A program made the translations under genes and the position numbers. The notes beneath the pieces were generated by a model. It did not search any database and was not told the origin of the DNA. It saw nothing but the letters and a program-made list of their open reading frames with translations. 64,000 nucleotides of DNA from an uncultured Christensenella sp. GTDB taxonomy: Bacteria > Bacillota > Clostridia > Christensenellales > UBA1242. The DNA lies in NCBI GenBank assembly GCA_949841595.1, contig CATKZB010000001.1, forward strand, positions 170,418 through 234,417, written 5' to 3'. Of this stretch, positions 1,366-59,100 are shown in pieces; position 1 is the stretch's first letter; the number at the start of each line of letters is the position of its first letter.

Positions 1366-1884
1366 TTAAATATATTCCTTCAAAGTTTCACAAACCCAGT
1401 CTTTATATTCTCTTGCATGATCACAAAAATCTTCAGAATAAAACATCTTCACAAACTCATCGTAAGAAAGATATTTCACTTCAGAGACTTCTTCTTTTTG
1501 CAAAGTCATTTCGTCTATTTTATAATTTGTCTTAAGCAAATAAATTTGTGCCAATTCTTTACCTTTCAAATTTACCCATTCTTTCAGAAATATAAAATCT
1601 TCAGGTTTTGCAACAATACCCAATTCTTCTTGTGTTTCTCTAACACAAGTTTCCAAAACACTTTCACCTGCAGAAACATGACCTGCAGATGGCATATCCC
1701 ATTTGTTTGGACTTTTCTTTTTTAAGGCAGATCTTTTTTGAATTAATAAATTCCCCCCCCCGTTAACAATCCATATCCAAACAGCTTTGTGAAAACAATT
1801 TGCCTCTTCACTGTGGCAATAACTTCTGCTCTTCGCTCCTAAAAATTTTCCATTAATGTCAAAAGTATCCAAAAATTCTTCCAT
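1366..1884 (-). CDS. Nudix hydrolase
   Basis: 172-aa ORF with a Nudix box GHVSAGESVLETCVRETQEELGI (GX5EX7REUXEEXGU). SD GGAG lies upstream of the ATG. Contains a G9 tract (1753..1761) encoding GGG. Confidence 0.85.
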   Translation of the reverse strand: MEEFLDTFDINGKFLGAKSRSYCHSEEANCFHKAVWIWIVNGGGNLLIQKRSALKKKSPNKWDMPSAGHVSAGESVLETCVRETQEELGIVAKPEDFIFLKEWVNLKGKELAQIYLLKTNYKIDEMTLQKEEVSEVKYLSYDEFVKMFYSEDFCDHAREYKDWVCETLKEYI

Positions 1885-35861: not shown

Positions 35862-35887
35862 AAAACAAAAAAAGACCAAATGGTCTT
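35862..35887 (-). terminator. Terminator after the serine hydrolase gene
   Basis: AGACC-aaat-GGTCT, followed on the minus strand by TTTTTTTGTTTTT. Confidence 0.55.
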
Positions 35888-36429
35888 TAAATATATTTCA
35901 ACAATTCAGGAAAAGTTGTATATCCTGCTGCTTTGTTAAAATGTCCTGCCTCACCTATGCAAATTTGTTTTCCTTCAACTAAGTCAGCAAACTCTTTTAA
36001 TTTTTCAAACTTAACATATGGATCAGTTTTTGAATAATAGCAATATGTTTCTGTGGCATGAGACTTAAATTCCGAAAGTCTTGTTGTATACATAGTGCAA
36101 TTTACTTCATCAAAATCTTCATCAAGATTTAAATATTGATTAAATCCTGCAACAAACACAACTCTTTTCACTTTCAAATCATTTTTAATCAAATATTTTG
36201 CCAAAAACACACAAGAAATTGAATGGCAGAAAAACACACTGTCTTCATTAATAAATCTTTTGACTGAATTTAGAACCATCTCCCAATTATAATAATTCTG
36301 TTTGCCACAACCAATCGGGAAATCTAAATTGAAGACCTCTTTATTCCCCCCCCGTAAGGTTTTTTCCAGCCAAGGGAACCAATTTTCTTGGCTTGAACCG
36401 AAACTGCCATGAATGATGAAATAATTCAT
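35887..36429 (-). CDS. YdeN/RBBP9-type serine hydrolase (alpha/beta fold)
   Basis: IIHGSFGSSQENWFPWL, nucleophile region FFCHSISC, SKTDPYV, and GHFN. Contains a G8 tract (36346..36353). Confidence 0.7.
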   Translation of the reverse strand: MNYFIIHGSFGSSQENWFPWLEKTLRGGNKEVFNLDFPIGCGKQNYYNWEMVLNSVKRFINEDSVFFCHSISCVFLAKYLIKNDLKVKRVVFVAGFNQYLNLDEDFDEVNCTMYTTRLSEFKSHATETYCYYSKTDPYVKFEKLKEFADLVEGKQICIGEAGHFNKAAGYTTFPELLKYI

Positions 36430-50370: not shown

Positions 50371-51294
50371 TTAAAGAATATATGCTGTTTTGTTTATATT
50401 GTCAACTTCTTCAAGTTTTTTTGGTGTCAAGATTTTGTTTGCATTGATATAGAATCTCATTCCTTGACTTGTGAAAAATGCTGTCATATCAAAAACACAG
50501 AGAAGTGCTGTCACAAGTGGCACAAGCACTGTCATTGTGTAGACACCAAAGATTAAAACCAAAACCCAGAAAATAGCAAAGAAAGTCAAAATGCTTGCAA
50601 AGAAAGACCAAAAATGACGTTTTGTTGATTTCATGCCCTTTCTGTTTGCTGCAAAAACATTGCAACCAAAAACAATAAGAGCTGGTGTCCAACCAAGCAT
50701 CAACATTTGATACAGTGCAAACAAAAGCACCAACACGATGCATTCAACAAGTGGCAAAAGATATTTTATGAAATATACATTTTCAATAAGCCCTATTCCA
50801 TAAACAGTCACAAGTGCAAAAGCAGAGAACAAACAGTTGTAGATTGTTCTGCACAAAGCATAAAGCAATGATTTTCTCAAACTTCTCACCAAAGCACTAA
50901 AAAATCCCAATTTGTTTTTGCTTGCCATGTAAGAATATAACATTTCATTTAAAACATATTTTCCAAGATTGACAAAAAATGGCAAAAACACAAAAAGGAC
51001 AATCAAGCCATAAATGGCAAGCCCTAAATTTGCATTAAAAATCTCAACACAAGTGCTGTAAGAGGTGTGGATTAAATTATGCAAGTTTAGTCCTAAAGAG
51101 CCTTGAAAAACCCCTGCAAAAGCATTTTGCAAATTAGCTTGTTGAAAATTTGAGATAACCAAATCTTTAAATTCAAAAAACACAGGCAAAAACAAAGCAA
51201 AACAAAGCCCCCAAATGCAAATATAATATAGGAAAAATTTGAGGACTTTTGACCAGTTTGAGCCAAAAAGCTTTAAAGAATTTAAAAATACCAT
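50371..51294 (-). CDS. Polytopic membrane protein of unknown function
   Basis: 307 aa with about 7 hydrophobic helices and an AAGGA SD. Confidence 0.5.
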   Translation of the reverse strand: MVFLNSLKLFGSNWSKVLKFFLYYICIWGLCFALFLPVFFEFKDLVISNFQQANLQNAFAGVFQGSLGLNLHNLIHTSYSTCVEIFNANLGLAIYGLIVLFVFLPFFVNLGKYVLNEMLYSYMASKNKLGFFSALVRSLRKSLLYALCRTIYNCLFSAFALVTVYGIGLIENVYFIKYLLPLVECIVLVLLFALYQMLMLGWTPALIVFGCNVFAANRKGMKSTKRHFWSFFASILTFFAIFWVLVLIFGVYTMTVLVPLVTALLCVFDMTAFFTSQGMRFYINANKILTPKKLEEVDNINKTAYIL

Positions 51295-51400
51295 ATAATC
51301 ATCCTTTTTTCAAAGTCAAAACAAAATTGTTACACAAGGATATTATAACAAAAAGACAACAAAATGCAAAGAAAAATAATACAAAATTTAAATCTTCAAA

Positions 51401-51871
51401 TTAAACTTGAATATCAACAATTTTGTAAGAGGTTGTTCCACCAGGTGTTTGAACAGAGATAACTTCCCCTTTTGAATGCCCAATAAGAGCCTTTCCAACA
51501 GGAGAAACATTGCTTATAAGTCCATTTCTTGGATCACTTTCAGAAGAACCAGTTATTGTATACACAACTTCTTCGTCAAATTCTTCATCATAAAGAACAA
51601 CTTTGCAACCAACGCTCACTTTATCAGCATTTATCTTCTTTTTATCAATAACTTCTGCGTTGAGCAAAATTCCTTCCATTTCAGCGATTTCAGCTTCGAT
51701 TTGAGCTTGTTCGTCTTTGGCTGCGTCATATTCAGAATTTTCTGAAAGATCCCCAAATTCTCTTGCTATTCCAATACGTTTTACAACGTCAGGTCTTTTA
51801 ACTGTTTTATAAAAATTCAATTTCTCTTCAAGTTGAGTTTTTCCCTCAGGTGTCAAATAGTGTTTTTCCAT
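51401..51871 (-). CDS. greA: Transcription elongation factor GreA
   Basis: LTPEGKTQLEEKL...AREFGDLSENSEYDAAK... coiled-coil tip, plus a C-terminal FKBP-like domain. Confidence 0.93.
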   Translation of the reverse strand: MEKHYLTPEGKTQLEEKLNFYKTVKRPDVVKRIGIAREFGDLSENSEYDAAKDEQAQIEAEIAEMEGILLNAEVIDKKKINADKVSVGCKVVLYDEEFDEEVVYTITGSSESDPRNGLISNVSPVGKALIGHSKGEVISVQTPGGTTSYKIVDIQV

Positions 51872-51978
51872 AACTTATCTCCTTTATACGCAATAATCTA
51901 GTTTTCATCATAAAATTAAAAAAATCGACCTTTGTGGTCTATTTCGGTGAAATTGAACCTTTGACTTTAAACGGCTTA

Positions 51979-52007
51979 ATTATACTTAAATTTGCACTTA
52001 AAGTCAA
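51979..52007 (-). promoter_or_regulatory. Sigma-A-type promoter candidate for greA
   Basis: Minus strand reads aaatttagTTGACT-17 nt-TATAAT, giving a leader of roughly 100 nt. Confidence 0.6.
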
Positions 52008-52158
52008 CTAAATTTCAACTTTTCTTGTGTAATATATTCACCACAAGCATAAAATATTCATATTTTTTCGTTAAAAATTAAAAATAAATTAAAAAAATGG
52101 TGTTTTTTCTGAATTTTTCCAAACAATAATTCAAGAAATTAACAAAAAGGAGAACTAT

Positions 52159-52572
52159 ATGATAACTTTTATTGCTTTTATATTAACAATTTTGGGATGT
52201 ATAGACTGGCTTCTTGTAGGGCTTTTGCAATATGATTTTATTGCAGGGCTTTTTGGGTTTCAAGCCAGCATATTTTCAAGAATAATTTATATTCTTTTTG
52301 GCGTTGCTTCAGTGTATTTGGTTTTGAGAGTAATCATAAACAAAGGCACTTTCAAAGTGTATGAAAAAAAGAAAAAAAAGGAAAAACAACAAAACTCAGC
52401 CCCTGCATATGCAAATGTGGAAGCAGGCAAGGAGCACATCTCTGATAAAGAAGAAAAACAAGAAGATTTTTCAGATATTAAAGAATATAGAGATCAATAT
52501 CGTGACATTGATGAAGAAGGCTATTATTCTTCTCATGACAATCTTTTTGATGAGCATTTCAGAGACAGATAA
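52159..52572 (+). CDS. DUF378 membrane protein with a charged C-terminal extension
   Basis: ILGCIDWLLVGLLQYDFIAGLFG is the DUF378 core, followed by a ~70-aa K/E/D-rich tail. Confidence 0.7.
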   Translation: MITFIAFILTILGCIDWLLVGLLQYDFIAGLFGFQASIFSRIIYILFGVASVYLVLRVIINKGTFKVYEKKKKKEKQQNSAPAYANVEAGKEHISDKEEKQEDFSDIKEYRDQYRDIDEEGYYSSHDNLFDEHFRDR

Positions 52573-52627
52573 AACAAATAATTGACTTTTTTTGCCAAAT
52601 AAATGTATTATTAATTAAGGAGAAATT

Positions 52628-54130
52628 ATGGTAACACTCGTAATATTGGACGGTTTTGGCGAAAACAAGCAAAAATTTGGAAATGCAATAAAAAGTCAAG
52701 GCACGCCTTATCTTGATAAACTAAAAAAAATGTATCCCCACACCCTTATAAATGCCAGTGGAGAAGCTGTTGGTCTTCCAGCTGGAATTATGGGAAACAG
52801 TGAAGTTGGTCATTTGACAATTGGCAGTGGAAGAATCATTTTGCAAGATTTACAACTTATAAACAGCGAAATTGAAAATCAAAAATTTTATGAAAATCCA
52901 GCTCTTATCAAAGCTTTGACACATGCAGAAAAAAACAAAAGCAATCTTCATTTGATGGGACTTTTATCAAATGGTGGAGTTCATTCCAGCATTGAACATC
53001 TGTTTGCAATCTTGGAATTTGCAAAAAACTTTGATATACCAAATATCTACATTCATGCAATCTTGGATGGAAGAGACACTGGTGTGCGTGACGGAATCAA
53101 ATTTATCGATCAAACTGAAGAGAAAATAAGTGGCACAAATGCCAAAATCGGAACTGTCATTGGAAGAATTTATGCAATGGACAGAGAAAAACGATATGAC
53201 CGTATTGAAAAAGCCTATAATATGCTCTTTTGTGGCAAAGGGACAAAATATCAAACTGCAGTTGAAGCTGTCAAATCCAATTACGAAAACGGAATATATG
53301 ACGAATATATGGAGTCTTGCATCATCGACAAAAATGCAACAATAAAAGATAACGACAGCGTTCTTTTCTTCAACTATCGCTCTGACCGTGCAAGAGAAAT
53401 CACATTTGCAATCACAGATGAAAACTTCAAACAATTTAAAACAAAAAAAGTTAACAATTTGTTGTTCACAGCAATGACACAATATGCTGATGAATTGAAA
53501 GACTTAAACACTCTTTATCCCCCAACAAGGATTGAAGATAACTTGGCTTGTGTTTTGTCAGAAAACAACAAAACACAATTTCATATTTCAGAAACAACAA
53601 AATTTGCACATGTCACATTCTTCTTTAATGGAGGAATTGAAAAACCTTACAAAGGAGAGGATCGAAAGCTTATTGACAGCATAAATGTTAAAGATTTTTC
53701 GGACTATCCAAAAATGAGAGCAATCGAAATCACTCAAGATGTTTTAGAAGCAATCGCATCAACAAAATATGATTTTATTTTGGTCAACTATTCCAACCCA
53801 GATATGCTTGGTCACACAGGAAATTTCAACAGCACAAAAGAAGCCATCGAATGTGTTGATAAACAAGCTTATGCTGTGGCTTTGGCGACACTTATGGCTG
53901 GTGGAGAATGCATCATCACTGCTGACCACGGAAATGCAGAAGAAATGATTGACAAAGACGGCAACAAACTCACAAAACATACCACAAATCCAGTTCCTTT
54001 GATTTTGGTAAGCGAGAAAAACAAGAAAGTGCGCTTAAAAAAAGGAAAATCTCTGACGGCAATTGCACCAACAGTGCTCAAACTGCTTGACATAGAAATT
54101 CCTCAAACTTTTGACAAACCTCTTTTTTAA
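52628..54130 (+). CDS. gpmI: 2,3-bisphosphoglycerate-independent phosphoglycerate mutase
   Basis: LVILDGFG..., ...GNSEVGHLTIGSGR..., ...SNGGVHS..., ...LDGRDT..., ...ADHGNAE... Confidence 0.95.
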   Translation: MVTLVILDGFGENKQKFGNAIKSQGTPYLDKLKKMYPHTLINASGEAVGLPAGIMGNSEVGHLTIGSGRIILQDLQLINSEIENQKFYENPALIKALTHAEKNKSNLHLMGLLSNGGVHSSIEHLFAILEFAKNFDIPNIYIHAILDGRDTGVRDGIKFIDQTEEKISGTNAKIGTVIGRIYAMDREKRYDRIEKAYNMLFCGKGTKYQTAVEAVKSNYENGIYDEYMESCIIDKNATIKDNDSVLFFNYRSDRAREITFAITDENFKQFKTKKVNNLLFTAMTQYADELKDLNTLYPPTRIEDNLACVLSENNKTQFHISETTKFAHVTFFFNGGIEKPYKGEDRKLIDSINVKDFSDYPKMRAIEITQDVLEAIASTKYDFILVNYSNPDMLGHTGNFNSTKEAIECVDKQAYAVALATLMAGGECIITADHGNAEEMIDKDGNKLTKHTTNPVPLILVSEKNKKVRLKKGKSLTAIAPTVLKLLDIEIPQTFDKPLF

Positions 54131-54156
54131 ATTTGTTAAAAATTTTTAAATATCAC

Positions 54157-54187
54157 TTGACAAACTCCCCCCCCCGCAATTTATACT
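54157..54187 (+). promoter_or_regulatory. Promoter candidate with a C9 tract in the -35/-10 spacer
   Basis: TTGACA (54157..54162), then a 19-nt spacer aactCCCCCCCCCgcaatt, then TATACT (54182..54187). An AAGGAGG SD and ATG 54219 follow. Confidence 0.5.
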
Positions 54188-54218
54188 TTATTTAAGAATA
54201 AAAAAAGGAGGCTTACAA

Positions 54219-54443
54219 ATGAAAACAGCAGCAAAAGTGTTTATCATATTGAGTATGGTTTTCGGTTTTTGGGTTATTCTTCCATTGATTTTCGGTGGAA
54301 TAGCATTGGGAAAACTTAAAACTGCAACAACAAAATCAGAACTCACCACTTCAGCAGTGCTTGTATTGTTGTTCTGCAGCTTACTTGGTGGAATCTTCAT
54401 GCTTTGCATTTCAGAAGAAGAACTTGCAGCAAACAAGCAATAA
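54219..54443 (+). CDS. Small 2-TM membrane protein (74 aa)
   Basis: Strong AAGGAGG SD. Two hydrophobic helices are separated by KLKTATTKSE. Confidence 0.6.
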   Translation: MKTAAKVFIILSMVFGFWVILPLIFGGIALGKLKTATTKSELTTSAVLVLLFCSLLGGIFMLCISEEELAANKQ

Positions 54444-54472
54444 GAAAAAGAACCAAATTGGTTCTTTTTTTA
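54444..54472. terminator. Bidirectional terminator
   Basis: GAACCAAATTGGTTC palindrome, flanked by an A-run and a T8 run. Confidence 0.6.
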
Positions 54473-55156
54473 ATTGTTGATAACTTCACCCTCTTGCAAA
54501 TCAGAAGTTGTTTTCATGCCAGATATGTTTGATAAAAGCCCAATTCTTTGGCAAGAAACTTCATATGCTGTTTTGGTTTCAGTTTCATTTTCGCTCACAG
54601 CTTTGATATATTCTCTTGACTGAATCCTTCCAATTATTTCCACTTTGCAGCCTATTGTCTGATTTGCCATAAATCTTGCATTTCTTCCCCACATAATGCA
54701 AGGGATGTAATCTGATTTATGATAATTAGTCCTGTTAACAGCAAGCAAAACATCACAAATTTCTCTGTTAAATGGTGTTTTGCGATAAATTGGTTCTTTG
54801 CAGATAAATCCAGTAAGTTTAACCTCGTTAATAAATTCATCATTTTGACATAATTCAATCTCTTTGGCAAACAAGTGCAAAACTAATTTGCTCTTTTCTT
54901 GCATGAGTTTGTTATAGCTTCGATATTCGCCTGTAACTTTGAGAAAATCACCTGCATGGAGCTCTTTTCCCATAAGAGTTCGTTCAGAAACAGTCACTGG
55001 GATTGTGTCTTTGATTTTTGAAAGCCTGTCAACTTCCACTTTAAACTCATAAAAGTTTTCTCCTTCAACCTGATGAGAGAGTTCTGGTGCACCAATAATT
55101 TTACCTGAAATTTGTGCATAATTTGTGTTTTCTTCCTTTAAATTTGTGTAATTCAT
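54470..55156 (-). CDS. SSB-family protein with two tandem OB folds and no acidic tip
   Basis: The second half, NEVKLTGFICKEPIYRKTPFNREICDVLLAVNRT...DYIPCIMWGRNA, matches the SSB pattern N-x-V-x-L-x-G-R-x-x-x-P-E...LAVNR...D-F-I-x-C-x-x-W-x-x-x-A. The first half, YAQISGKIIGAPELSH...ENFYEFKVEVDRLS..DTIPVTVSE, is a second OB-like copy. Confidence 0.5.
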   Translation of the reverse strand: MNYTNLKEENTNYAQISGKIIGAPELSHQVEGENFYEFKVEVDRLSKIKDTIPVTVSERTLMGKELHAGDFLKVTGEYRSYNKLMQEKSKLVLHLFAKEIELCQNDEFINEVKLTGFICKEPIYRKTPFNREICDVLLAVNRTNYHKSDYIPCIMWGRNARFMANQTIGCKVEIIGRIQSREYIKAVSENETETKTAYEVSCQRIGLLSNISGMKTTSDLQEGEVINN

Positions 55157-55164
55157 ATTTCCTC

Positions 55165-55929
55165 CTAATTTTTGTGTTGAACGCCATTTCTGTCTATTGT
55201 ATAGTCACTTTCATAAACCAAATCTGAAATTGCAGTAACTTTGTAACCTGCCACTTTAAGTCTGTTTAAAGTCAGTCTTAAAGCATCCAAAATATGATCA
55301 GAATTGTTGTGCATCAAAATTATTGAACCATTTTTAACTCTCGACATCACCCTGTTTGTTATCTCAGAAGCAGAAAGCCCTTTCCAGTCAAGACTGTCCA
55401 CGTCCCATTGAATTGTTTTCAAGTTCAAACTTTCAGCAGTCTCAAGAAGTGCGTTGTTGTAAGAACCAAATGGTGCTCTAAACAATTTGACATCTTTGTT
55501 TGTCACAGCCTTGATTTTTGAAATAGATGTTTCAAGTTCGCTTTTCATTGTTGAAGCTGAAAGTTTAACCATGTCAGGATGAGTGTTTGAATGAGTGCCA
55601 ATCTCAAATCCAGCATCATCAATCGCTTTGGTCATTTCGGTGTAGTCATCCACCCAAAAGCCAACAAGAAAGAATGTCGCCCCCACATCATATTCCTTCA
55701 AGATGTCCAAAATACCCTGTGTTTTGTCAGCACCCCAAGCAGCATCAAAAGAGATGGCCACTTGTTTTTCCTCTGTTTCAACATTGTAAATTGGAACTTT
55801 TCTGGTCGAATATCCAAAATAGACTTGTGCAGAAGTCGAACCATTAACAGAAATTGACAACAACACAGCCACAAGCACAACAGCAACAAAAATTTTGATT
55901 GTTCTTGATTTGATAACGCAGAAATGCAT
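55165..55929 (-). CDS. Polysaccharide deacetylase (NodB homology), PdaB/YlxY-like
   Basis: Signal anchor, then ISFDAAWGADKTQGILDIL...ATFFLVGFWV...GFEIGTHSNTHPDM. Start trimmed to ATG 55929, which has a GAGG SD. Confidence 0.8.
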   Translation of the reverse strand: MHFCVIKSRTIKIFVAVVLVAVLLSISVNGSTSAQVYFGYSTRKVPIYNVETEEKQVAISFDAAWGADKTQGILDILKEYDVGATFFLVGFWVDDYTEMTKAIDDAGFEIGTHSNTHPDMVKLSASTMKSELETSISKIKAVTNKDVKLFRAPFGSYNNALLETAESLNLKTIQWDVDSLDWKGLSASEITNRVMSRVKNGSIILMHNNSDHILDALRLTLNRLKVAGYKVTAISDLVYESDYTIDRNGVQHKN

Positions 55930-56095
55930 ACAAACCTCGCTTTTTATTTTAAAGTTTATTTGCATTTTCAACAATGACAATTTTGACTGAAATAATCTAT
56001 TATTGTTTTAAGTTGTCGAAAATACATGAATTTGAAATTGCTTTCTAAAATAATGTACTTTTGATAACAAAAAAATAGAACATCAATTTGGACAA

Positions 56096-56129
56096 TAAAA
56101 AAGAATGCAAATTCAATGCATTCTCTTTT
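56096..56129 (-). terminator. Terminator after the GLUG-repeat gene
   Basis: AGAATGCA-aattcaa-TGCATTCT, with a T-run on the minus strand. Confidence 0.7.
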
Positions 56130-59100
56130 TTAGCACCAATAGAAAACTTTTAATGTCCATCTGCTATTTACCTGTAGCCATATATCTTTATCTAAGTTGT
56201 TTATGTTTGCTCCATAATAATTATTATCAGAATTGCTCGAAGCTCGATAATAGCAATTTTCAGATGTTACATAATCACTATCACCACATGCCAAATCATG
56301 TGTAAAATCGGGATTAGCTGTTATCTGACATTCAGCATAACATTGGCTAAATTCGGTAGATGACAAAACTTCTCCTACAATACCTGCAACTTCACTTAAA
56401 TCTTCACAAATCATGTTTGTTTTTGAAGACACAGCAAAGAATTTACAGTCTTTTGCAAGTCCCACTATACCACCAAAACGTGATCTATATTTTTGACTGT
56501 TTTTAATAGACTTACCTTGCAATTCAACAACATTTTCTGCATAATCAAAACTTCCGTTGTCTTCATCATTATAAATATTATGATAAGTTATTTTATTCGT
56601 TTGCAATGTGCAATTGAAGGTGTGAACATAAGAGAATTTAGTATTTTCTGCCTCTGCAACAACTGCCCCCACATTTCCAAATCCAGTGAACTTACAGTCT
56701 TTTATTGTCAAGTTTTTGATAGTTGCGCCGTTGGTATAACCAAACAAACCAATGTCAGAGATTTTGTCTCCATCATTGTCTCCACCAATAAATTTAAGAT
56801 TTGAAATCATATGGTGATTTCCGTCATAAACACCTTTGAATGGGTGAGCTTCGCTTCCGATTGGATTGAAGATTTTGCCAAACATATTAATATCTGCAGT
56901 TTGCCTAATTAAACAACTTTCAAAAGTTTCGCCACCATTAACCATTTGACTTAACTTTATCAAATCATCAGCATTGTTAATTTCATAAACACCATTCACA
57001 GCAGTTAAATTTCCAGAAACGTTTGTATAATCTTTTAAATATTTAGCAGTTATTGTTACATCTGAAAGTGAGCCATTATTAGCAAATTTGTATTCTTTGT
57101 TTAATGTCAGCAACTTATCGCCATCACTACCACACACGTAAAGACCTATGTATCTATATCCCTCTGGTACATTTTCTGATTCTTTTACAGTTACTGTAGC
57201 AAAATAGTATGGTTTATCGTAATTTTTATAATCACACTCAAATGTTGGCTTATATCCACCAACACTCGACTCCAAGTTTACTGAATAATTACTTACACTA
57301 AAGAAATAATATAGATCAATTGTGTTATTCCAATCTGAAATATTATTTCCTTTAATTTCTGATACATATTCGGTCAATAGATCTCCCGACCAAACTATAG
57401 ATTCAATATTTTGTCCATTTTGTTTTCTCCAATCATTAAGATAGCCTTTAAAGTCTGCACTTAAATCAGTAAATTCAAAATATCCTTGATTTGCTTTTCT
57501 TTCAACTTTAATATCTCTATTATCAACTGTAAATTTAATAGCAGTTGGAGTTACAGTTCCACCTAAATGGTTTTCATCAGATTTAAAGTCATATTTGCTA
57601 TCAAATTTATCAACATATGTATAGATATTGACAGTATATTCAATAGCTTCTCTTGAAATCTGCACAGTAAATTCATTGACATCTATTAATCTAAATTCTA
57701 ACAATTTATCAAAAGGATCAACTTGTTTATCGTCTCCTATTGAAATAATCCATCTAAAATCAGGATTTGTTGAATCTCCAAAATTTACACACTCAGGTTG
57801 TAATCCAACCTTTAACTCAGAATCACCATCCGACAAAGTCACATTTTCTTCATTGGATTTTAAATTTGTAATTTTAAAACTATATTTATATCCCAATTCA
57901 AATTTGTTTTCAAAGTCGACAGTTTTGTGCATATCATTTGTAACTAGAAAATCAGTCCATGAATCAAAACCACTCCCAGTACCATCCCAAAAAGAAACGT
58001 GTATTTTATAATTTACTTTCTTAAACAAGAAAACCAATTGACCAGCTTCACCATCTTGATATTCATATGAAAAAGTATCATAAAAATAAACTCCTAAAGG
58101 TTCTTCTCTAGGTTTAAAACCATGACGAAGTTTAGCTTCCGTTGCACTATCTTCATATGCAATACCTGCAAATTGATAACCAAATTTTGGCGTAACTTTA
58201 TATTTAATATTATCTTTATAATATATTTCATCGATTGAACAATCATTTATTTCCACTGTTCCAAAATCAGAACTAGAACCGTCAATCAACTTCGTTTTAA
58301 TATCTAAAGAAATTGATTTGTTTTCTAATGTAAACCTTACTACAAATCCATTAACTTGTTTTGTGAAACTAAGATACAAACTATCAGCTTGTGGCACGAC
58401 ACCACCAAAAGATTGAAAGCTAGTGTTATATGATTTACTAATTTCTGCAGAAATATATTTAAGCTTTTCTGTGTTGTAAGTTAGATTTAACAGCTGTTTG
58501 TATCTCAGTTCAATTCTATAGTTAACTCCTCTTAAAAAGTAAATATTTTTAGAGTCAAGGTTTTCAAATTTAGATTTCCATTCTATCTTACCTTTATTAT
58601 CACAAAATCTAACAGATGTCTTTATATTAAATTTTTCTTTTTCTTCTTCAGATAATGTTATGGTTCTATTTGGAAGTTTAACTTGGATAGTATTTATATC
58701 AGCGTCTGAAACGGCAGAACTAGGGACTAACAAACTATTGCCACCTTCTGTCTGTGAAATTTCTTTTGAAACTGCCGAGCTATTATCAAAATAAAAATTT
58801 ACGATTGGAGACATAAACCATGTCTTTTCAGTGCCTTTATGGGTTTCTGGATATGTGTCACCATCTTCGTCAGTATATTCACTTTCATACATCTTATGAG
58901 TGCCAATTTCATTTGACCATGTCAAAACTCCTCTATAAGAAGAATTGTTATTGTAGTTCCATCGCCCCAAATACCAATTGTTATAGTTGTTTAAAAAACT
59001 ATACTCAATTAAATCACCTCTCCATGTTTTATAGCCAAAATGTTGAAAAGAAACCGATACAGATTTTGAATCGTGATTTAAACATTTGTCAATTGGTTTG

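Follow-up and report, generated by a model that had tools for sequence, protein, structure and literature searches.

Does a run of nine cytosines in a promoter spacer act as a length-dependent switch for the small membrane-protein gene behind it? Here we consider this question for one locus of the window (the whole 64-kb stretch of DNA that was analysed), drawing on the sequence itself, on assemblies of the same species and on homologous loci in related genomes.

Architecture of the locus

Direct reading of the plus strand gives a consensus −35 hexamer, TTGACA, at 54157–54162 and a −10 hexamer, TATACT, at 54182–54187, the latter without a TGn extension. The spacer that separates them (54163–54181, plus strand, also by direct reading) is 19 nt long here and reads AACT-CCCCCCCCC-GCAATT; within it, the poly(C)/poly(G) tract, which is C9 in the window, occupies 54167–54175. 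The −10 hexamer lies 31 nt from the ATG of a gene of 74 codons (54219–54443, plus strand), which encodes a predicted two-helix-hairpin membrane protein of no known family. A Shine–Dalgarno sequence, AAGGAGG, is read at 54205–54211 (plus strand), 7 nt 5′ of that ATG. All of these elements, from TTGACA and the 19-nt spacer with its C9 to TATACT, AAGGAGG and the 74-amino-acid gene, had been put forward in the initial annotation, and its coordinates and letters proved exact throughout.

The upstream neighbour on the same strand is gpmI (52628–54130, plus strand; iPGM_N and Metalloenzyme domains). The terminator scan found no terminator-like structure between gpmI and the small gene, and without one a baseline of expression by read-through, independent of the tract, may exist. 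Downstream, a bidirectional intrinsic terminator (54443–54471; stems of 13 and 11 pairs with a T run after each, one per strand) is common to the small gene and to a convergent SSB-like gene (54470–55156, minus strand), and the small gene is thus the final gene of its transcript. A search of Rfam over 53800–54700 returned nothing but sub-threshold matches, which lie on the terminator, and a riboswitch or small-RNA reading was dropped for this reason.

The pattern TTGACA-N15–20-TATAMT has a single match in the 64-kb window. Shuffled sequences gave an expectation of 0.27 matches each and at least one match in 23% of cases; by itself, the hexamer pair is not statistically significant. The promoter call therefore depends on its position before a conserved gene and on its conservation, not on the hexamer match. 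The scan for terminators and promoters accepted spacers of 16–18 nt only, which is why the 19-nt promoter is absent from its output. Other pairings of hexamers were considered and rejected: with C9, the hexamer found 17 nt before TATACT is GACAAA (2/6 as a −35), which was discarded by inspection, and TTTATA, the candidate −10 at 17 nt, has neither the key A2 nor the key T6. We likewise set aside a G-quadruplex or i-motif, as a lone G9 run cannot build an intramolecular quadruplex and, relative to the gene, the G run is not always on the same strand.

Long C runs are rare at the base composition of the window, which has a GC content of 33%. A first-order Markov model predicts 0.016 C runs of at least 9 nt and 0.07 of at least 8 nt per window; three of at least 8 nt were observed on the plus strand (C9 at 1753–1761, C8 at 36346–36353 and C9 at 54167–54175). 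The tract at 54167–54175 is well beyond chance, and its earlier description as the third long C tract in an AT-rich window is correct, three runs of 8–9 nt being counted. The same 64 kb hold no C6 or C7 run and, on the plus strand, no G run of 6 nt or more. In the window, long G/C tracts are over-represented relative to base composition, and in the window and in related species they have a narrow modal length.

Tract length within the species

To sample the species, the exact 74-amino-acid protein and a 97%-identical variant were looked up in public assemblies, which yielded 18 sequences including the window. Lengths were all read from consensus assemblies, some of the ENA scaffolds and Logan contigs possibly deriving from the same runs, and fell into four classes: C9 (19-nt spacer) in 12 of the 18 assemblies, C10 (20 nt) in three (L003, L148 and L151), C7 (17 nt) in two (L004 and L007; SRR32965977 and SRR32965978, adjacent run accessions that are possibly not independent) and C6 (16 nt) in one (L006; SRR34312787). 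C9 is therefore the majority allele in the window's species, and no C8 allele occurs among the 18 assemblies. The end of one more contig (L005) falls within the tract.

The surroundings of the tract are stable. The 120-nt upstream region is otherwise identical in the contigs that span the tract, and L005 differs by one G-to-T change in the Shine–Dalgarno sequence. In L003, L004, L006 and L007 the tract is the sole indel across 2.3–4.2 kb. L006 has no mismatch to the window over 2,858 nt, yet three C fewer; L007 has none over 2,325 nt, yet two C fewer. These four contigs also contain A/T runs of 7–8 nt (4–11 per contig), every one of which is unchanged. The intact A/T runs argue against generic homopolymer miscalling, which we rejected on these grounds. 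Single-sample values such as C6 could still stem from sequencing error specific to G/C homopolymers.

Tract length is thus polymorphic between close genomes with stable flanks, and by this comparison of lengths between assemblies the tract at 54167–54175 is hypermutable. An invariant C9 in related strains had been named beforehand as the finding that would speak against phase variation, and loss of C residues had been predicted to give an allele at optimal spacing. The tract is not invariant (C6, C7, C9 and C10), and C7, with its 17-nt spacer, is present in two samples.

Contigs that end in G/C tracts (L005, L036, L143 and L144) would agree with mixed populations. Look-ups with gpmI and GreA as anchors added hardly any samples because the contigs end short of the tract. 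We also observed that the assemblies derived from ERR3199641 (ENA ERZ17810326 and GCA_948504575.1) are interrupted at about 53816 and about 54415, with the approximately 600 nt around the tract missing from the long contigs; strain mixture around the variable tract may be the cause of these gaps.

Another homopolymer lies close by. An A7 run at 54200–54206, just 5′ of the Shine–Dalgarno sequence, is A6 in most contigs of a 98%-identity sublineage (drawn from L128, L145, L146 and L148–L154) and carries an A-to-G change in L147. On this distribution, the A7/A6 difference looks like one fixed between lineages rather than hypervariation.

Two further tracts in coding sequences

The remaining long C runs of the window lie within genes on the minus strand and appear as poly-G on the coding strand. 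The run at 36346–36353 falls near codon 26 of a gene for a serine hydrolase (35887–36429, minus strand). As G8 it is in frame and specifies a product of 180 amino acids (four sequences); as G9, the majority form (seven sequences), it creates a frameshift, and the gene caller takes an alternative start to give 174 amino acids. From these sequences, the gene is a candidate for translational phase variation in a housekeeping-type enzyme.

The run at 1753–1761 encodes Gly-Gly-Gly in a Nudix gene (1366–1884, minus strand). Both the window and GCA_948504575.1 have G9 and a product of 172 amino acids, and GCA_948647925.1 has G8, with a frameshift that leaves 109 amino acids called; two contigs end at this tract. 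GCA_948647925.1 is 100% identical to the window over 51219–57443, and it is the G9 versus G8 state of the Nudix tract that identifies the two as different assemblies.

Tract combinations differ by sample (C10 with G9 in SRR36555100; C10 with G8 in ERZ28570253), and all three tracts of the window vary independently: C8/C9 at 1753, G8/G9 at 36346 and C6–C10 at 54167. Since both coding tracts vary besides the promoter tract, the window comes from an organism with several independently varying polyG/C tracts.

The small membrane protein family

The 74-amino-acid protein has 380 database homologues, all of them small (70–130 amino acids) and from metagenome-assembled genomes (MAGs) of gut Clostridia labelled Oscillospiraceae, Ruminococcaceae, Christensenellaceae, Coproplasma and similar. 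Some of the longer homologues carry an extra SHOCT domain. An alignment of 41 sequences contains 14 invariant columns, the N-terminal MKTAAKVF among them, and the protein is strongly conserved by this measure. The AlphaFold model is a helical hairpin with a mean pLDDT of 87. Pfam, NCBIfam, PHROGs and PADLOC gave no significant match to the family, and neither a profile search nor a Foldseek fold search of the PDB returned anything above noise for the protein.

Recurrence of the promoter design in related genomes

A survey of homologous loci in one genome per species gave 80 loci, none from the window's own species (best match 74%), and in 68 of them a start codon could be placed. The organism is placed among gut Clostridia by way of its relatives and of co-occurring samples that resemble mouse gut. 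Exactly G9 stands between TTGACn and TATACT or TATAAT in 10 of these 68 loci (L040, L041, L051, L060, L061, L062, L065, L088, L097 and L114). Seven of them are orthologous and share the arrangement TTGACn-N5-G9-TATGn-TATACT. L051 and L065 (Pumilibacter muris CLA-AA-M08, cultured) have TTGACA-A(A/G)C-G9-TTCGTTT-TATAAT, and L088 has TTGACA-AAAATC-G9-TGC-TATACT. With the window counted, in which the coding strand carries poly-C, the tract promoters fall into no fewer than four flank contexts that are unrelated to one another.

All 11 tract-bearing promoters retain TTGAC, as do most of the 51 tract-less ones. The tract is followed by TATACT or TATAAT, with a TGn extended −10 in 8 of the 11. Among orthologous promoters the flanks within the spacer have diverged (GGTAC, GCAAT, GTTAT, TTTAC, TGTAC and TGCAT) and TTGAC and the G tract are retained. 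The closest relatives of the window's protein (P0002, 79%; L057 and L110, about 74%) have ordinary promoters without a tract, so the tract in the window is most simply an independent gain.

The 234 kb of homologue loci contain 13 G/C runs of at least 7 nt. Ten of the 13 are located in the spacer slot of about 19 nt (binomial p ~1e-20, shared ancestry ignored), and 12 of the 13, all from representative genomes, are exactly 9 nt long. Within two of the related species the length varies. In the species of P0011 the tract is G9 in six cases, G10 in one and an interrupted GTG7 in another (L034), with one contig break; in the Pumilibacter-like species of P0073 it is G10 in eight and G9 in two. The genes associated with such tracts include the focal membrane protein and, in relatives (L040 and L065), lipoproteins, but in the window also the Nudix and serine-hydrolase genes.

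Several individual loci deserve mention, the first three of which hold the three long runs outside the spacer slot. In L040, a G9 at 578–586 sits in a second promoter, TTGACA-N10-G9-TATACT, whose 19-nt spacer lies upstream of a gene for a 229-amino-acid lipoprotein. In Pumilibacter muris (L065, 3188–3196), G9 is found in the coding sequence of a lipoprotein, directly after the lipobox Cys. L071 has a C8 run 25 nt upstream of a −35. In some strains of the species of P0011 (L029 and L032), an rve-family transposase (461–1705) has entered the DNA immediately 5′ of the G9 promoter; sequence beyond about −60 is replaced, and the promoter and tract are intact.

Spacer lengths and the modal length of nine

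Spacer lengths were taken from one uniform scan over all homologue promoters. Tract-less promoters (n = 51) have spacers of 17 nt (31 promoters) or 18 nt (15), with five of other lengths. Tract-bearing promoters (n = 11) have 19 nt in ten cases and 18 nt in one (Fisher p = 6.5e-9 for the contrast, shared ancestry ignored). In their reference state, tract promoters hence exceed the usual spacer of the family by 1–2 nt, and the C7 allele brings the window's promoter to 17 nt again. This contrast is the pattern expected if the common state were weak and contraction raised the activity of the promoter. As the window promoter has no TGn extended −10, it should depend more on its −35 and on spacing.

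Nine is also the most common length of polyG/C tracts in Campylobacter jejuni, where G8 mostly gains and G11 mostly loses residues, and this mode has been ascribed to the mutational pattern and not to selection for a given switching rate (PMC3401435). Such an explanation also fits the tracts described here. The flanks, in turn, appear to be set such that an attractor length of nine yields a spacer of 19 nt.

A putative promoter-spacer switch and its alternatives

In our judgement, the C9 tract is probably a promoter-spacer slippage switch and would belong with the porA/opc/fetA promoters among transcriptional contingency loci. The initial annotation had read the promoter as a candidate for phase variation, and both the natural variation and the comparative sequence evidence lend support to that reading. 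Slipped-strand mispairing at replication would add or remove C:G pairs in the spacer of a sigma-A-type promoter. The change in tract length would alter the distance between −35 and −10 (16, 17, 19 and 20 nt occur in nature) and, through it, the rotational and linear fit to RNA polymerase, and the outcome would be heritable yet reversible variation in transcription of the small gene within a lineage. C9 and C10 (19–20 nt), the common state, would probably be low or off, and C7 or C8 (17–18 nt, the spacing of tract-less homologues) would probably be the high state. We infer that tract length alters promoter strength, and which length corresponds to the on state; frequent, reversible switching within a clone is likewise presumed. 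The benefit would presumably be a form of bet-hedging on a membrane protein, with phage or host factors as examples of what it would guard against.

Some observations count against a switch. The dominant natural alleles (C9 and C10, with G9 and G10 in relatives) all give 19–20 nt, and a plain off state at 19 nt would leave the gene silent in most populations despite the strong conservation of its protein. Read-through from gpmI may provide expression whatever the state of the tract. In relatives, the TGn extended −10 found in 8 of the 11 tract promoters lessens reliance on the −35 and on the spacer.

The first alternative is that the tract is a neutral hotspot: any G/C run of nine slips, and expression is unaffected, either through read-through from gpmI or because the promoter tolerates 16–20 nt. 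Read-through would be permitted by the lack of a terminator between gpmI and the small gene, and the other tracts of the window lie in housekeeping-type enzymes (Nudix, serine hydrolase) and not in classic surface genes. A mode of nine, too, suits a mutational attractor rather than a selected state (PMC3401435). We nevertheless regard neutrality as unlikely. If the tract were neutral, point mutations would erode it, as they have in the GTG7 of L034, and it would not recur, whereas here it is retained in the same slot of orthologous promoters with diverged flanks, one gene family has it in four or more promoter contexts, and 10 of 13 long G/C runs in 234 kb are inside the spacer slot. Moreover, the flanks consistently give 19 nt with nine repeats and not a random spacing.

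A second alternative, which we consider quite unlikely, takes the G9/C9 block to be a functional element in itself, with 19 nt as the intended active form and length variants as deleterious noise. Either a protein might bind the block, or the block, as stiff poly(dG)–poly(dC) of A-like form, might alter the geometry of the spacer. Among representative genomes its constancy would agree with this (12 of 13 runs are exactly nine long, and 10 of 11 promoters have 19 nt), but nine is not strictly maintained, G10 being in the majority (8 of 10) in the Pumilibacter-like species. C9 is the majority allele of the window's species and strong conservation of the protein suggests normal expression, both as expected of an active form; against this, poly-C on the coding strand in the window and poly-G in relatives leave no strand-specific structure conserved, and we know of no regulator for the tract. 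Tracts of similar composition in porA and opc act as plain spacers (PMC2791445), and the mode of nine is also found in coding tracts of C. jejuni, where spacer geometry is irrelevant (PMC3401435).

The last alternative holds that the tract is in truth invariant and that the length differences arose when a G/C homopolymer was sequenced or assembled. It draws on the use of consensus contigs only, many of them automated Logan assemblies with platform and depth not given, on the breaks of L005, L036, L143 and L144 at tracts and on the single sample behind C6. It is highly improbable because differences of 2–3 nt exceed typical miscalls, both C7 and C10 are found repeatedly, in separate runs and with different assemblers (Logan, ENA scaffolds), the same contigs have all 4–11 of their A/T runs of 7–8 nt correct and no other indel, and frame-changing variation at both coding tracts extends across NCBI MAGs, ENA scaffolds and Logan contigs.

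Relation to known systems

The slippage switch favoured here resembles the promoters of Neisseria meningitidis porA (poly-G), opc (poly-C) and fetA in having a G/C homopolymer between −35 and −10. In Neisseria, homopolymers between the −10 and −35 of porA, fetA and opc alter expression via sigma-factor binding: slippage changes the spacing, the spacing changes the sigma-factor fit, and transcription of a membrane protein becomes graded or on/off (PMC2791445, PMC3960869). By contrast, the host here is a Gram-positive-type, AT-rich, uncultured gut commensal and not a proteobacterial pathogen, and the product is a 74-amino-acid inner-membrane hairpin instead of an outer-membrane porin or adhesin. 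The tract is also shorter, with a mode of nine, Neisseria promoter tracts being about 9–14 nt long. The resting state here is supra-optimal, at 19–20 nt, and the effect on expression is putative.

Repeats in the spacer also set promoter activity in Mycoplasma hyorhinis (the vlp poly-A tracts) and in Haemophilus influenzae (the hifA/hifB TA repeats), and vlp shows that the mechanism exists in a Firmicutes-related lineage. Unlike the tract described here, those repeats are poly-A or dinucleotide rather than poly-C/G, and their targets are surface lipoproteins or fimbriae.

Tracts in C. jejuni are overwhelmingly intragenic and act by translational switching, whereas the focal tract here is in a promoter spacer and the phylum is different. 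The window is like the C. jejuni contingency loci in its AT-rich genome, its multiple G/C tracts and its mode of nine (PMC3401435), with three G/C tracts in 64 kb, all of them variable between samples.

A further case comes from the gut commensals themselves. The pilus tract of Bifidobacterium breve, an actinobacterium, reportedly lies within coding sequence and acts on sortase-dependent pilus clusters. Replication slippage at a G tract is described as the ON/OFF switch of this pilus (PMC9187656). Literature searches, incomplete in coverage, returned no earlier description of homopolymer promoter switches in these taxa.

Implications for gut Clostridia

To our knowledge, repeat-mediated phase variation has been documented almost entirely in pathogens, and in the literature searched, phase variation in gut commensals consists mostly of invertible promoters and methylation. 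The mechanism proposed here is already known; what it would extend is the reach of repeat-based contingency loci, to commensal gut Clostridia. The 64 kb of this AT-rich genome hold three candidate loci of the slippage type, one transcriptional and two translational.

On a wider reading, whose chances we see as evenly balanced, an uncultured, non-pathogenic group of gut Clostridia (Christensenellaceae-, Oscillospiraceae- and Pumilibacter-like lineages, together with the cultured Pumilibacter muris CLA-AA-M08) would run a Campylobacter-like multi-locus polyG phasome, in which one family of membrane proteins of 70–80 amino acids has repeatedly and independently gained G9 at the same promoter slot, with a 19-nt 'off' state as the default. 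If this were true, fluctuating selection would have the small protein as a major target, for instance because phage use it as a receptor or because the host recognises it as an antigen. One and the same uncharacterised small membrane protein has this promoter design in several species, which marks that protein as a repeated target, and the homologous G9 promoter of the cultured relative Pumilibacter muris CLA-AA-M08 provides a testable handle.

There are also practical consequences for the use of MAGs. Genes with such tracts are prone to miscalls in annotation, as in some assemblies where the Nudix and hydrolase genes are 'split' or 'truncated', and assemblies tend to break at G/C tracts of this kind.

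Strand orientation of the tracts

A minor observation concerns the strand on which the tracts are found. In all 10 tract-bearing homologue loci, which share ancestry, GC skew is positive (0.04–0.14) on the poly-G strand; the mean GC skew of the 70 tract-less loci is 0.02. On the plus strand of the window, where all three tracts are poly-C, the GC skew is −0.16. Judging from these skews, the orientation of the tracts may follow the direction of replication and not that of the genes.
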